Shown piece by piece: positions 1-4,940 of a stretch of 4,940 nucleotides of DNA (within the stretch, counting starts at the first letter, position 1; each line of letters starts with the position of its first letter). Position numbers and translations under genes: made by a program. Origin of the DNA: a virus (taxonomy: Duplodnaviria > Heunggongvirae > Uroviricota > Caudoviricetes); IMG/VR virus record IMGVR_UViG_2654587792_000012, positions 1 to 4,940 of that record. One strand, given 5' to 3'. A model generated the notes under the pieces. It saw nothing but the letters and a program-made list of their open reading frames with translations, did not search any database and had not been told where the DNA came from.

Positions 1-123
1 GTTCGTCCGGGCATGAAGATACCCCGCGCTCAGCGTGGACTGATGTTCAGACGCCCATGCAGGCGCACCGGATACGGCCAGACAAATGGCTGCGGACGAA
101 ATGGCGGCATAAAGTTTACGCAT
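1..123 (-). CDS. lom: Outer membrane protein Lom (Ail/Lom family), N-terminal fragment; CDS continues beyond the left edge of the window
   Basis: Minus-strand ATG at 121-123 preceded by GAGAGG (plus 129-134) with a 5-nt spacer. The frame is open to position 1 and translates to MRKLYAAISSAAICLAVSGAPAWASEHQSTLSAGYLHARTN: a signal peptide (hydrophobic core, AWA cleavage motif) followed by what I recognise from memory as the mature N-terminus of lambda Lom. Position immediately downstream of J matches lambda synteny. Not in the ORF track because no stop codon falls inside the window. Confidence 0.85.
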   Translation of the reverse strand, partial: MRKLYAAISSAAICLAVSGAPAWASEHQSTLSAGYLHARTN

Positions 124-190: not shown

Positions 191-3100
191 TCAGCTGATA
201 CTGATGCCTGCGGTGGCTTTCTTCATCACCACAACCAGCAAATCGCTGATACTTGCTGTGGGATACCAGTTATTCACTAGCCATGCTGATACCGAAAACT
301 CCAGCGTCATGTGACCGTGACCGGCAGGCATATCAATAACGCCACTGTAAATCAGCGTATTATCCAGCGCGGTACGGTTATAAATTTCAGCACCGTTTTT
401 CCGCACTATCAGACGGCATGAGGAGTAAATATCAGTATGCTCTCTCTCATGCTTAGCGCCACTGAATGCCACCGCCGGAATAACAATCTGCCGGTCAAAC
501 GGCTGATCGTCATAAACCCTGACGGTAATGGTCCCTGATGGCCACCGCTCCGGTGCCCGGGAGTCCCGCGGAAAAGCCTTACCCACTGTTTTGACTATAT
601 CGCCTTCAATCTGGTTGGCTGACAGTTTCCCCTTAATCTGACAGTTCTCATTAATTGTGACATTGTTGAGCGTCCCGGCGTTCGCATTCACACTGCCACT
701 GATATCTGCATTTTTAGCGGTCAGCTTTCCGTCCGGTGTCAGGGAAAATGCCGGAGGATTACCGCCGCTGGTAATGGTGGGAGCCGTCAGTCGCTTCAGG
801 AACACGTCGTTCATGAATATCTGGTTGCCCTGCGCCACAAACATCGGCGTTTCATTCCCGTTTGCCGGGTCAATAAACGCGATACGATTGGCGGCAACCA
901 GAAACTGGCTCAGTTTGCCTTCCTCCGCGTCCTCCATGCTGAGGCCAATACCCGCGACATAATGTTTGCCGTCTTTGGTCTGCTCAATTTTGACGCCCCA
1001 CATGGCATTCCACTTATCGTTGGCGTCCTTCCACTCTTTCGAAAACTCCTCCAGTCTGCTGGCGTTATCCTCCGTCAGGTCGACTTTTTCCAGCAGCTCT
1101 TTACCGAGATGGGATTCGGTTATCTTGCCTTTGAAAAAATCCAGGTAACCTTCCGCATCATCGCTCGCCCGACCGACGGCCTCCACGAATGCCGATTTGC
1201 CAACGGTGTTCACACTGCGGATATAAAAGTAATAATCATGGCCCGGTTTGATATTGATACTGGCGGCTATCCAGTACAGCCCCGAGCCAAGGTAGCGGGC
1301 TGTGGTTTCAACCTGCCTGATATCGGTAATCCGCTTTTCCGAGAACCAGAACTCAAACTGTACCGTCGGATCATAAACGGCAAGATGCGGCGTTGCGGTT
1401 ATCTGAAAATAGCCCGGCGTCAGCTCAATCGTGGCGGGTACCGCAGGTGCATTAATCCTGAACGTGGTGGTGGCCGGTTCCCCCTGCTGGCCATAACTGT
1501 TAATTGCCCTGACTGTCAGGGTGTATTCCCCGAGCGGCAGACCACTGAAACGATGCTCTGTATCCGCAGTGATGGCGGTGGTCACCAGACGGCTGTCCTG
1601 ACCGCTTCCACTGGTCAGGCGCAGACTGAAGCGCACACCCTTCACCACCCGCGGCGTGTCCCATTTCGCCTGCGCCAGATACTGGCTGTCAGCTGCACTC
1701 ACCTCCACCGTCAGGTGCTGCACTGCCGGTGGGATAACGCTGTTCAGGGTGCCTGACTGCGGCTCAAAGCTGGCCCCGTTATCCACGATGGCTTCTTTTT
1801 CCGGTACGTGCTGCACCGCCGTGATGGCAAAGGTGCCGTCCGTGTTTTCCCGGATGGAAACACAGCGGAACAGGCGACGACGCAGTGACGGCAGGGAGAG
1901 TCCCCATACACCGTATGTCTCCACACCATCAGGCAGGGTGCTGACCTGTATCCGGTCCGGCGCGGGGTGTGCAGTGATGGCCACGCTCACCGGCTTACCG
2001 CTGCCGTTAATCAGGTTCACCGTGGCGGCACCTGTCTCCGGCAGGGTCACCTCACGGTCCAGTGTCAGGGTGCGGCTGGCGGCATCGATGGACAGGACAC
2101 GTCCGCCGGTCATGGTACCGGCGTAGTCGTTATCACAGATTTCAATGATGTCACCGGGGGTGTGACGCAGCCCCTGTGACCCGAGCGTGAAATCCACCGT
2201 CTGCGTTTCCAGCAGTCCGGTCTTTATCACCCACAGCCCGGCACGGTGGGCCTGACCGCGACTGGTGCAACCGAACGCATCCATCTTCAGCAGGTTGCGC
2301 CCGTAGCGCAGTATGGCTTCCGGGTCTTCCACCAGTTCCGTGGAGGTCTGCCAGCCGTTCTGCGGGTCGGTGTAATTCACCTCCACCGCCGTGTGGCGGT
2401 CCTTCAGGGCGCTGAAGCTGTAGCGAAACCCCACGCCGTTATCATCCACCACTACATCGCAGTTGGTGTACGGCCACACCACATCCGACGGGCGGTCCTG
2501 AACGAACGTCAGCGTCTGGCCGTTCCATACCGGCATACAGCGCATCGCCGAGCAGAAATCACTGAGAACGTCCCACGCCTTACGCTGTTGTGACAGGTAC
2601 GCATTAAAGGTCATCCGCGGCTCTGTGCCCCCGAAACCATCCGGGACCGTCTGGTCGCAGTACTGCCCGATGGCATACAGCGCCCACTTGTCCACATCCG
2701 CCGCCCCCAGACGTTTTCCCATGCCGTAGCGCGGGTGAGTCAGCATGTCCCACAGGCACCAGGCCGGGTTGTTGCTGTATGCCGGTTTCAGGCTGCCGTC
2801 CCAGATGCCGCTGTAAGTGCGTTTTTCCGGGTCATAGTTTGACGGCACCAGGATGATGCGACCTCGGATATGGTAGTTCACCGTCATCTGCTGACCGCCA
2901 AACTGCTCCGCATCCACCTGCAGCCCCACAATCGCCGTGTTCGGGTAGCACTGTTTCACATCGATGATTTCGGTGTATGACGACCAGAGCGTCTTATTCT
3001 GCAGCTGGTCCGAGGTGCTGTCCGCTGTCTCCCGGACCATCCGGATGTTAAAAGGACGGGGAGGCAGATTATCCAGAATCACCGACGCCAGAAACTGCGA

Positions 3101-3580
3101 GGTGGTCTTGCCGTTAATGGTGACATCCTTTTCCGTCACCCAGTTACCGTTACGCTGTAACTGAATCAGCAGGCGGACGGATGTCGGGTTTCGGTCACCC
3201 TTTGACGTGGTCTGCACCAGTGACTGCACCCCGAAGGTGACCCGCAGGCGGTCAATGTTCGCGGATGTAATGGTGCGCGTCACCGGCTTTGCCTTCGTCA
3301 CTTCCACGCCCAGTGCGGTTTCCGCCCCGGAGGACTCAAAGCCTTCGGGTGGTGTCTGCTCCTGCTCCCCGGCGCGCCAGACCGCGGTCACACCGTGTAT
3401 CACAGGATTGCCGTCAGTGTCCGTCAGCGGGGTTTTGTTCACCAGAATACTCTGCAGTCCCTTCACCGGACCTTCAATCGGCCCTTCACCAATGGCATCA
3501 ATCACGCTCATCATCTGCGTGGACTTAAGATTGTCCTTTGCCTCAACCGGCGTGTGCGCCTTGCCGCCACCTTTGCCCAT
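191..3580 (-). CDS. J: Host specificity protein J / central tail fibre (tail tip), lambda gpJ family, 1129 aa
   Basis: Single uninterrupted minus-strand ORF (track 191..3622) ending at TGA 191-193. I place the start at the ATG at 3578-3580 (15th codon of the tracked ORF): from there the protein begins [37 protein letters not shown], which I recognise as the lambda gpJ N-terminus (from memory [22 protein letters not shown]...). A purine-rich AAGGGTGAG lies immediately upstream. The 14 extra codons in the track start at a TTG and run through a terminator-like hairpin. Length 1129 aa against about 1132 in lambda. Long conserved blocks (e.g. [42 protein letters not shown]) and two FN3-like repeats in the middle are consistent with gpJ. 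Confidence 0.95.
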
Positions 3581-3611
3581 TGTCTCACCCTTTACTGTGA
3601 TAACTGTTACG

Positions 3612-3644
3612 CACAAAAACAACAGGCATCCCGGAGGATGCCTG
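3612..3644 (-). terminator. Intrinsic-terminator-like hairpin plus U-tract on the sense (minus) strand, about 30 nt upstream of the J start codon
   Basis: Plus 3623-3631 CAGGCATCC and 3636-3644 GGATGCCTG form a perfect 9-bp stem (6 GC pairs) with a 4-nt loop (3632-3635). On the minus strand the stem is followed by TTGTTTTTGTG (plus 3612-3622). Confidence 0.45.
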
Positions 3645-3652
3645 TATCATCA

Positions 3653-3688
3653 CTGAATAAAAATTCTGAATATCTTCACATTTTCACA
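3653..3688. repeat. Short direct repeats in the spacer: CTGAATA twice (3653-3659, 3666-3672) and TTCACA twice (3675-3680, 3683-3688)
   Basis: Read directly from the sequence cactgaataaaaattctgaatatcttcacattttcacaaa. The repeats are too short to rule out chance in AT-rich DNA. Confidence 0.3.
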
Positions 3689-3776
3689 AACTGACTGTGG
3701 TACTAATAATTTCTCTGCGTTAATGTTTTTTGTCGTGACATAAGAATAATTCTCTATAGTTAATCTTCGTAACTCT

Positions 3777-3810
3777 CCCGCAGCTCCGCAACACTGCGGG
3801 ATTTTTTTAT
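3777..3810 (+). terminator. Terminator-like hairpin plus T-tract on the plus (antisense) strand, abutting the I stop codon
   Basis: Plus 3777-3783 CCCGCAG and 3794-3800 CTGCGGG form a 7-bp stem (extendable to 8-9 bp with a mismatch) around a 10-nt loop, followed on the plus strand by ATTTTTTTATTCTTTTT. On the minus strand the same hairpin is preceded, not followed, by the A/U run, so it is not a sense-strand terminator. Confidence 0.4.
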
Positions 3811-3815
3811 TCTTT

Positions 3816-4496
3816 TTACCTCTGCCGCCCGATAACCACGACCTTCCCGCCACCGCCTTCATCACGGGTACTGATGTCCTGAGAGATTCGCCGGGAGCCA
3901 ACCAGCATTTCCCCGTAAGGCACCGGCATCGGGTTACCCTGGGCAATCATATTGTCCAGTGACGAAAAGTACGTGTTCTGTTTACCGTTATCCGTGCTTT
4001 TGTACTCCGGTACTTTAGCCTTCGGGGCCAGCATCTGAGCCACACCACCCAGTATCATGCTGGCCCCCAGTGAAAACAGCATCGTGGTGGCAGAAAAACC
4101 ACCGGCTGCCAGGGCTGAACCCCATAACGCCATTGATGCCCCGGCAGTGAAGAAAGAGCCCACGATGGCTGCCGCCCCCAGCACAATCTGCAGTCCACCT
4201 TTTCCGGCCCCGGCCAGTCGCGGCACAATGTGGATGATCGTTCCCTCACCCAGCTGTTCGTGAAGACGGGCGTACACCGCCTCCGGTGCCGTGTCCTCAC
4301 CGCGAATACGTATCTGGTACCAGCCTTCGTTCATCTGACGGCGGAATCCCGGCACCTGTAACGACAGCGCCCGGATGGCTTCCGCTGCCGTGTTCACGTA
4401 CAGGCTGAGGCGGCGGCCAAATCGTTGCAAATCCCCGTGAAGGCAGATGCGTGCCAGTGGCGGTGACGCCAGACAGAATGCGTTCGTCGTTGCCAT
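3816..4496 (-). CDS. I: Tail tip assembly protein I (lambda gpI family), 226 aa
   Basis: ATG at 4494-4496 to TAA at 3816-3818. The protein begins MATTNAFCLASPPLARICLHGDLQRFGRR, has a Gly/Ala-rich hydrophobic central segment, and ends NGKQNTYFSSLDNMIAQGN...VVVIGRQR, which I recognise as lambda gpI (223 aa, from memory). Purine-rich GGGAGAGG lies upstream at a rather long spacing of about 11 nt. Start lies 103 nt inside the 3' end of K in another frame. Confidence 0.9.
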   Translation of the reverse strand: MATTNAFCLASPPLARICLHGDLQRFGRRLSLYVNTAAEAIRALSLQVPGFRRQMNEGWYQIRIRGEDTAPEAVYARLHEQLGEGTIIHIVPRLAGAGKGGLQIVLGAAAIVGSFFTAGASMALWGSALAAGGFSATTMLFSLGASMILGGVAQMLAPKAKVPEYKSTDNGKQNTYFSSLDNMIAQGNPMPVPYGEMLVGSRRISQDISTRDEGGGGKVVVIGRQR

Positions 4497-4940
4497 TTTT
4501 CGGAATACCTCTCCCGTTTACTCAGTTGTTCAGGCAGATGGTGAAGCAGTTCACCGTTGCCGCAGTAAATGGCGGCATGATTGGCCACCGATGCGCCAAA
4601 GCAGCACAGCAGGATATCGCCCGCCTGTGCAGAGGACAGGGGCACCCGGTAAAAGCCGGTGACCGCCATATTGTCCAGGTACAGGTTCTGACCATTGCGC
4701 CACCAGTCATCCTCACGCTCAAAATCCGGCATATCAATTCCCGCCAGATGGTATGCATCCCGGAACAGCGTGTAACAGTCCGTCACCCCGTGCTCAAAGA
4801 GCCGTCCTGTCAGATGTGGCACACAGCGGAATTTATGAATGTCCCCCCGGCAGACCAGCCACCAGGACAGTGCACTTTTTATCTGCAGCCGCCGGTCGGC
4901 CTCGCTCAGCCAGGGCAGACCACCGGGATGACTGTGGACC
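4394..4940 (-). CDS. K: Tail tip assembly protein K (lambda gpK family; JAMM/MPN+ plus NlpC/P60 domains); 5' end lies beyond the right edge of the window
   Basis: The minus-strand frame is open from the window edge (first full codon 4937-4939) to TGA at 4394-4396. The track reports it only from an internal GTG at 4822 because no start codon occurs between there and the edge. Translation from the edge gives VHSHPGGLPWLSEADRRLQIKSALSWWLVCRGDIHKFRCVPHLTGRLFEHGVTDCYTLFRDAYHLAG... HSHPGGLPWLSEAD fits the JAMM motif H-x-H-x7-S-x2-D (plus 4895-4936). The downstream Cys in DCYTLF (codon 4775-4777) and His in NHAAIY fit an NlpC/P60 Cys-His catalytic pair. This two-domain arrangement is that of lambda gpK. 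Confidence 0.9.
   Translation of the reverse strand, partial: VHSHPGGLPWLSEADRRLQIKSALSWWLVCRGDIHKFRCVPHLTGRLFEHGVTDCYTLFRDAYHLAGIDMPDFEREDDWWRNGQNLYLDNMAVTGFYRVPLSSAQAGDILLCCFGASVANHAAIYCGNGELLHHLPEQLSKRERYSEKWQRRTHSVWRHRHWHASAFTGICNDLAAASACT

Follow-up and report, generated by a model that had tools for sequence, protein, structure and literature searches.

A mosaic J protein of a lambda-like Escherichia coli prophage with an O157-type tip that very probably docks on OmpC rather than LamB

The C-terminal tip of lambda gpJ has an Ig-like fold, and four loops at its bottom insert into the receptor (PMC11101478). Lambda gpJ has been solved in the closed state (PDB entry 8xck) and in the open state on LamB (PDB entry 8xcj). 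Analyzing 1207 natural J homologues, Maddamsetti et al. (2018) reported that residues 960–1132 are disproportionately variable and that residues ~960–1132 of J constitute an independently recombining specificity module. Among natural J homologues, variability and indels peak at lambda positions 1012, 1048/49, 1077, and 1107 (PMC6646904).

Brodel et al. (Nature 2024; PMC11338833) fused natural prophage J C termini to lambda gpJ and obtained the chimeras A8 and 1A2, which use OmpC in place of LamB. In ΔlamB ΔompC cells, 1A2 delivered DNA when EDL933 OmpC was present but not with K-12 OmpC, which A8 accepts, whereas wild-type lambda particles failed with either protein. When assessed on 23 OmpC variants, 1A2 reached 76–99% delivery on 20 of them and failed on G1, G2, and G40 (PMC11338833). 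Structures represent A8 gpJ in the closed state (PDB entry 9wca) and in the open state with OmpC G17 of E. coli EDL933 (PDB entry 9wcb). Single substitutions in J can also change the receptor: phage 21, for which LamB is reported as the native receptor, gains OmpC by one mutation (PMC11336670).

Gene context and alignment with lambda gpJ

The window analyzed here is a 4940-bp E. coli draft contig (JHTM01000225.1, assembly GCA_001506145.1) in reverse complement; all of its genes lie on the minus strand, as do the features of J given below. Tail gene K (4394..4940), its 5′ end cut by the end of the contig, contains an NLPC_P60 domain, and matching genomes list it as a C40 peptidase. It is followed by the ORF of tail assembly gene I (3816..4496; Pfam Lambda_tail_I is found on the same gene in L007) and by gene J (191..3580), which encodes the tip attachment protein, or central tail fibre, as an intact ORF of 1129 aa running from the ATG at 3580 to the stop codon at 193–191. 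The window ends within lom, encoding an Ail/Lom outer-membrane protein, of which the first 41 codons are present (1..123) before the contig end cuts off the rest; the gene call and an Ail_Lom domain come from sister contigs, and the annotation of matching genomes agrees. ORFs, gene calls, and annotations together place J in the tail operon order K–I–J–lom that is expected for lambda gpJ. Two 13-kb contigs likewise encode the identical J protein, and their lambda-like genes for the head-tail connector and the tail form a complete set. A consensus scan of the gap between J and lom for a terminator or promoter found none, and searching the entire window against all Rfam families (E ≤ 1) gave no match.

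Genes I and J are separated by a spacer of 235 bp (3581..3815, minus strand), where lambda and phage 21 have about 60 bp; this spacer is not part of the finding on the J tip. The spacer is conserved at 72–100% in many Stx and EHEC lambdoid prophages, where it is unannotated. A first hairpin, with the invariant stem CCCGCAG/CTGCGGG, lies directly after I, and the opposite strand then has a run of seven Ts. A second hairpin lies ~30 nt before the start of J, with TGTTTTTG coming after it on the J strand; between phages, it has undergone one compensatory change, from T-A to C-G. The J-strand segment of the spacer folds better than shuffled sequences (z −3.6). This layout possibly corresponds to a small moron with its own terminators, which might specify a small RNA on either strand. 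The anti-sRNAs AgvB and AsxR were rejected as candidates, because their location is the PR′ moron site and they are unlike the spacer in sequence.

We compared J with lambda gpJ (NC_001416, 15505–18903) by global protein alignment. The two proteins (1129 and 1132 aa, respectively) are colinear from end to end, with 74% identity and 4 gap columns. Pfam finds six gpJ domains in J, all at E ≤ 1e-33 and arranged in the canonical order: FNIII-A_GpJ (aa 86–207), Phage-tail_3 (aa 330–498), Ig_J (aa 609–712), Ig_J_second (aa 714–816), Phage_Tail_Tip (aa 843–970), and Ig_GpJ_C (PF12421; aa 999–1129, E 1.7e-37). The similarity to lambda is unevenly distributed. Over aa 1–720, identity is ~75% at both the amino acid and the nucleotide level, with patches at 42–60%. 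It reaches 95–100% over aa 721–960 and drops to ~40% (amino acids) and ~50% (nucleotides) in the last ~150 residues. In bins of 50 residues, amino acid identity is 94–100% for aa 801–950 and 78% for aa 951–1000 and then falls to 48%, 40%, and 30%, whereas nucleotide identity is 94–100% for aa 781–960 and 46–64% for aa 991–1129. Third codon positions are 0.83–1.0 identical to lambda (mostly 0.9–1.0) in the adjoining aa 781–960, compared with 0.27–0.37, which is near random, over most of the tip (aa 991–1110). This contrast between the fibre segment and the tip cannot be due to chance.

A previous reading of this DNA, made from the sequence only, had described J as lambda-like up to about residue 975 and diverged from there to the C terminus. 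The per-bin identities show that the break near this residue (window position ~655; the interval 191–655 encodes aa 976–1129) is real and abrupt, and the pairwise alignment that had been suggested as a check confirms that the last ~150 residues are less lambda-like than the rest of J. Closeness to lambda up to ~975 holds for aa ~721–970 but not for aa 1–720, with its ~75% identity. Among the anchor residues said to be conserved, GDIVK, WPSGT, and PFDRQIV are indeed common to both proteins, whereas of VIDMPAG and MKK..GIS the two proteins share no more than DMPAG and KK..GIS, respectively. The small indel noticed near the end of J proved to be one residue long and lies in the last variable loop.

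Mosaic structure of J

Advancing by 60 nt at a time, we compared the DNA of J with that of lambda, VT1-Sakai (prophage Sp15 of O157:H7 Sakai; AP000400), phage 21, and phage 434. The segment for aa 1–720 (1421..3580), which covers the hub domains and the first Ig/FNIII domain, is VT1-Sakai-like (~95%) and diverged from lambda; its nucleotide identity is mostly 90–100% to VT1-Sakai and about 60–88% to lambda, phage 21, and 434. The following stretch, aa 721–800 (1181..1420), is conserved in each of the four J genes compared (88–100% nucleotide identity), and on this pattern it is likely a crossover zone. An allele of the lambda/434 type encodes the α-helical shaft and β-prism fibre, aa 801–960 (701..1180; domain names taken from PMC11101478), with 92–100% nucleotide identity to lambda and 434; against VT1-Sakai and phage 21, this segment is mostly at 52–75%, rising to 0.73–0.92 at both of its ends. 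The neck between the fibre and the binding domain, aa 961–1000 (581..700), has a phage 21/A8-like version of the sequence. Finally, the receptor-binding domain Ig_GpJ_C, aa 999–1129 (194..586), is of the O157-prophage/gpJ 1A2 type and is a predicted OmpC binder; nucleotide identity over aa 1001–1129 is 92–98% to VT1-Sakai and 43–65% to lambda.

These comparisons show J to be a mosaic of at least four alleles, for which recombination is the only possible explanation, because the silent sites of the tip are near random relative to lambda and yet lie beside a lambda-identical stretch, and because the tip is near-identical to that of VT1-Sakai, whose adjoining stretch differs from the one in the window. 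The earlier proposal that the tip had been swapped in is upheld by the junction itself, where a segment with 95–100% nucleotide identity to lambda abuts a tip at ~50% that is 92–98% VT1-Sakai. Its description of J as a conserved body with a changed tip is an oversimplification for a protein made of at least four pieces. We consider it extremely improbable that the tip diverged in place, through point mutation under diversifying selection and with no recombinational swap. Although rapid evolution of the specificity region has been documented (PMC6646904), such a process is at odds with third-position identity of ~0.3 in the tip next to 0.83–1.0 in aa 781–960, with the presence of the tip at 92–98% nucleotide identity in VT1-Sakai, where the adjoining fibre segment shows just ~55% identity to that of the window, and with published phylogenies, in which J and its specificity region give discordant trees.

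When the entire window was searched against complete genomes, no match above 95% was found. This reflects the particular combination of pieces and not any new piece.

Fold and specificity loops of the tip

A search of PDB sequences with the last 169 aa of J returned A8 gpJ (9wca, E 2.8e-64), lambda gpJ fragments (8xcj, E 3.9e-41), and full-length lambda gpJ (8iyk). We then modeled the same 169 aa with AlphaFold as a monomer. The input alignment was shallow (19 sequences), short fragments, several of them frameshifted, having been removed from the protein-search results beforehand. The model is all-β with a pLDDT of 80.6, its first ~40 residues being poorly predicted. Foldseek matched its fold to 9wca, 9wcb, 8xck, and 8xcj with TM scores of 0.72–0.76 (E 2e-19 to 4e-19 for 9wca, 9wcb, and 8xck). 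Structure prediction of the C-terminal domain, another of the suggested checks, thus matches the solved gpJ tips, and according to this model, the J tip keeps the Ig-like β-sandwich fold of the gpJ C terminus.

The specificity loops were centered on the lambda peaks at 1012, 1048/49, 1077, and 1107 (PMC6646904). Loop 1 (aa 1005–1012, RDSRAPER; 545..568) corresponds to lambda 1007–1014 around S1012 and is identical at 1 of 8 positions. Loop 2 (aa 1042–1052; 425..457; lambda 1044–1054) retains 2 of 11. It holds R1046, which is the sole loop difference from gpJ 1A2 and is aligned to the lambda hot spot V1048, and it is the loop that varies most among natural alleles of the J tip type (HEREHTD, HERNHTD, HERKNNN, and HGRGDKE). 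Loop 3 (aa 1067–1077; 350..382; lambda 1069–1079 around V1077) is likewise identical at 2 of 11 positions, and loop 4 (aa 1097–1111; 248..292; lambda 1099–1114 around D1107), which contains the one-residue indel, at 1 of 16. In total, 6 of 46 loop positions are identical to lambda, compared with 52 of 91 (57%) in the framework. All eight of the lambda host-range sites 1012, 1048, 1049, 1053, 1076, 1077, 1083, and 1107 (PMC6646904) differ in J.

With these differences, the J tip does not have the receptor loops and host-range residues that a LamB-type tip would keep. They are in agreement with the view that the C-terminal part of J is the host-range determinant, as every one of the receptor-governing lambda residues checked is changed. 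Relative to lambda, the aligned sequences indicate a tip in which the scaffold is retained and the binding surface is replaced.

Receptor of the tip module and related systems

The DNA of 1A2 in the supplement of PMC11338833 is machine-read text with small indels, and we therefore used a frameshift-tolerant alignment. At 164 readable positions, 1A2 is identical to the VT1-Sakai tip at 159 and to J at 151. The five mismatches with VT1-Sakai all sit at evident reading errors, indicating that 1A2 carries a VT1-Sakai-type tip. With the machine-read DNA cross-checked against VT1-Sakai in this way, J has eight true differences from the 1A2/VT1-Sakai module in 169 aa. Six of them are in the neck (S963N, A968S, Q981R, I982V, K983L, and I995L), and only two are in the binding domain (R1046K and S1127T). 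The native lambda part of 1A2 ends at residue ~964, so that the swapped module corresponds to J aa ~963–1129 and spans the interval 191–655.

Of the compared tips whose receptor use is reported, that of 1A2, an OmpC user, is the closest to the J C terminus. The sequence-only reading had anticipated either a receptor other than LamB or a LamB variant. The former agrees with our results, as the module is nearly identical to 1A2, which is OmpC-dependent in ΔlamB ΔompC cells (PMC11338833); the latter is unlikely, given the same 1A2 results. The best-supported reading is that the J tip would bind OmpC, probably over a broad range of alleles that does not include the K-12 allele, with the J allele carrying R1046 and S1127 presumably behaving like 1A2. 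This call follows from near-identity to 1A2 and not from membership of the broad tip class. Similarity of tip type alone is an unsafe predictor of the receptor, because the phage 21 tip is 82% identical to that of the OmpC binder A8, yet LamB is reported as its native receptor (PMC11336670). Phage 21 was dropped as an OmpC reference on account of this native receptor, as stated by Gerbino et al. (2024; PMC11336670). A full-text literature search for host specificity protein J together with OmpC, Stx, and receptor found no paper, and a search for the paper behind PDB entries 9wca and 9wcb found nothing relevant.

We consider it highly likely that the window encodes the J protein of a lambda-like E. 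coli prophage assembled from at least four recombined alleles, with an O157-type tip that docks on OmpC and not on LamB. The last ~130–170 residues form a receptor-binding module of the type present in O157:H7 prophages, such as VT1-Sakai (Sp15), in which the Ig-like β-sandwich scaffold of lambda gpJ bears four different bottom loops. The central tail fibre would end in three copies of the module, and their loops would dock on the trimeric porin OmpC instead of LamB. Docking on OmpC would spread the three domains apart, upon which the β-prism fibre would twist and the helical shaft would flip, and the tail tip would open for DNA ejection, in likeness to lambda on LamB. We infer that this opening mechanism carries over from lambda to J.

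The tip could instead still bind LamB, or the LamB allele of its natural host, in which case its divergence would merely track variation in LamB. The fold and framework in common with lambda would suit this explanation, as would phage 21, whose tip is of a non-lambda type although the phage is reported to use LamB natively (PMC11336670). We nevertheless judge it very improbable, because all four specificity loops and all eight host-range sites differ from lambda, and the near-identical 1A2 works in ΔlamB cells and needs OmpC (PMC11338833). Another possibility concerns the single loop difference from 1A2: through R1046 in loop 2, the tip may bind OmpC with an allele range other than that of 1A2 or may use an additional receptor. 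In the alignment, R1046 falls on a known hot spot of specificity (PMC6646904), natural alleles of this tip type vary in loop 2, and 1A2 and A8 accept different OmpC variants (PMC11338833); the exchange of arginine for lysine is conservative, however, and we regard such a shift as unlikely. The R1046 allele is widespread and 100% identical in many genomes, which argues neither way on the range of OmpC alleles. It seems to us rather more unlikely that the particular combination of a lambda shaft and fibre, a phage 21/A8 neck, an O157 domain, and R1046 gives access to other OmpC alleles (perhaps K-12-type) or to a second porin. If this were true, shuffling of neck and loops within the module, beyond whole-module swaps, would tune the host range.

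J might also belong to a defective prophage and no longer serve infection, which would be compatible with the best explanation of how the protein acts. Lambdoid prophages in pathogenic E. coli are often defective, the J of VT1-Sakai itself is split by mutation, and the window, a short contig, terminates in prophage genes that are repeated. On the other hand, J is an uninterrupted ORF of 1129 aa, and identical J proteins are found on the 13-kb contigs with complete head-tail connector and tail genes, leaving a defective prophage as a tentative and somewhat doubtful possibility. The J tip type is viable in infection, because the plaque-forming phages PhiR5_1 and PhiR55_1 carry it with 94–95% nucleotide identity (PMC13190303).

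The O157-type tip, for which we favor docking on OmpC, is common. Many complete E. coli genomes, for instance O103:H2 12009 and O45:H2 FWSEC0003, match the 450 nt that encode it with 100% identity; 1549 records match at ≥95% identity, and some match is present in 3559 of 5426 genomes. In the phage collection, 53 of the 243 records with a homologous tip have the J tip type (≥95% protein identity), and carriers include O157 Stx1, Stx2a, and PPompW prophages as well as the plaque-forming PhiR5_1 and PhiR55_1. The tip swap in J is real, but it is an ordinary and already known case of the published host-range module exchange, since the J specificity module has been published (Maddamsetti et al., 2018) and the tip type has been characterized as 1A2 (PMC11338833). 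By means of the same tip type, lambda particles have previously been redirected to OmpC (Brodel et al., 2024; PMC11338833). For tail tips of a class that is very common in E. coli prophages, our analysis allows a receptor to be named (OmpC, with the K-12 allele probably excluded), and it reveals a natural gene with the same junction of lambda fibre and O157 tip as the one picked by engineers.

Homologous modules on lambda-like bodies are found in phages 434 and 21, whose tips are of distinct types and are 47% and 67% identical to that of J, respectively; phage 434 is cited as an OmpC user. The trimeric, Ig-like tip of lambda gpJ is 48% identical to J over 169 aa and has the framework motifs GDIVK, WPSGT, PFDRQIV, DMPAG, and KK..GIS in common with it, but its receptor is LamB, and its four loops are replaced in J, with a one-residue indel in loop 4. 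A8 gpJ, an OmpC binder by structure (9wcb) and by delivery assays (PMC11338833), has the same domain family and fold as the J tip and 66% identity over 169 aa; the two proteins are unlike in their loops, and the differences comprise, among others, an insertion of 5 residues in loop 2 and a deletion of 4 residues in loop 1. Finally, the last 169 aa of J belong to the same allele family as gpJ 1A2 and the VT1-Sakai J C terminus. The neck reads RVL/L in 1A2 and QIK/I in J, one loop-2 residue differs as well, and the N terminus of 1A2 is that of lambda, whereas the N-terminal 720 aa of J are VT1-like. As in 1A2, a lambda-identical fibre lies directly upstream of the tip in J, making it a natural counterpart of the engineered fusion.

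Gene I and the I-J spacer

The gene I ORF (window 3816-4496) has two possible starts. Initiation at 4496 gives a 226-residue protein and an overlap with K, and the internal start gives a 193-residue product, as called on the sister contigs (8779-9360 in L005).

Between I and J lies an AT-rich spacer of 235 bp (window 3581-3815); the corresponding gap measures about 60 bp in both lambda and phage 21. Many Stx/EHEC lambdoid prophages retain the long spacer at 72-100%, with no annotation at this position. The Stx2 phage Stx2a_WGPS2 (NC_049941, 43182-44720) carries a transposase gene where J would start, inserted at the spacer's J-proximal end.

Signals of both orientations were found in the spacer. 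On the J strand (minus), just upstream of the J start, a terminator-like hairpin at window 3645-3622 is followed by TGTTTTTG; comparison among phages revealed one compensatory change (T-A/C-G) in this hairpin. The opposite strand carries a promoter-like site at about 3682-3709 and a second terminator-like hairpin, with T7, at 3785-3800, whose stem is invariant. Searching the window against Rfam returned no match for the spacer, and the known prophage anti-sRNAs AgvB and AsxR were both ruled out as its identity. The I-J spacer may encode a moron small RNA, and we consider it a candidate.

Mosaicism of J

Residues 801-960 of J (window 701-1180), comprising the shaft and the fibre, exist as two deeply different alleles with approximately 55% nucleotide identity between them. 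Lambda, 434, and the window carry one allele, and VT1-Sakai and phage 21 carry the other. Recombination of this segment is separate from that of the hub on one side and of the binding domain on the other.

The binding domain itself also appears mosaic in some J homologues. In an alignment that includes P0028, a natural J homologue fragment recovered by protein search, some natural fragments are of the window type in the first half of the domain and of a different type in the second half, from specificity loop 2 onward, which suggests that crossovers occur within the binding domain.

Comparison with the J gene of VT1-Sakai

VT1-Sakai is apparently the prophage that supplied the tip of gpJ 1A2, an OmpC-using lambda gpJ chimera. 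According to the annotation, a mutation splits its own J gene (L004, 1993-5465) into two ORFs, whereas J in the window is intact.
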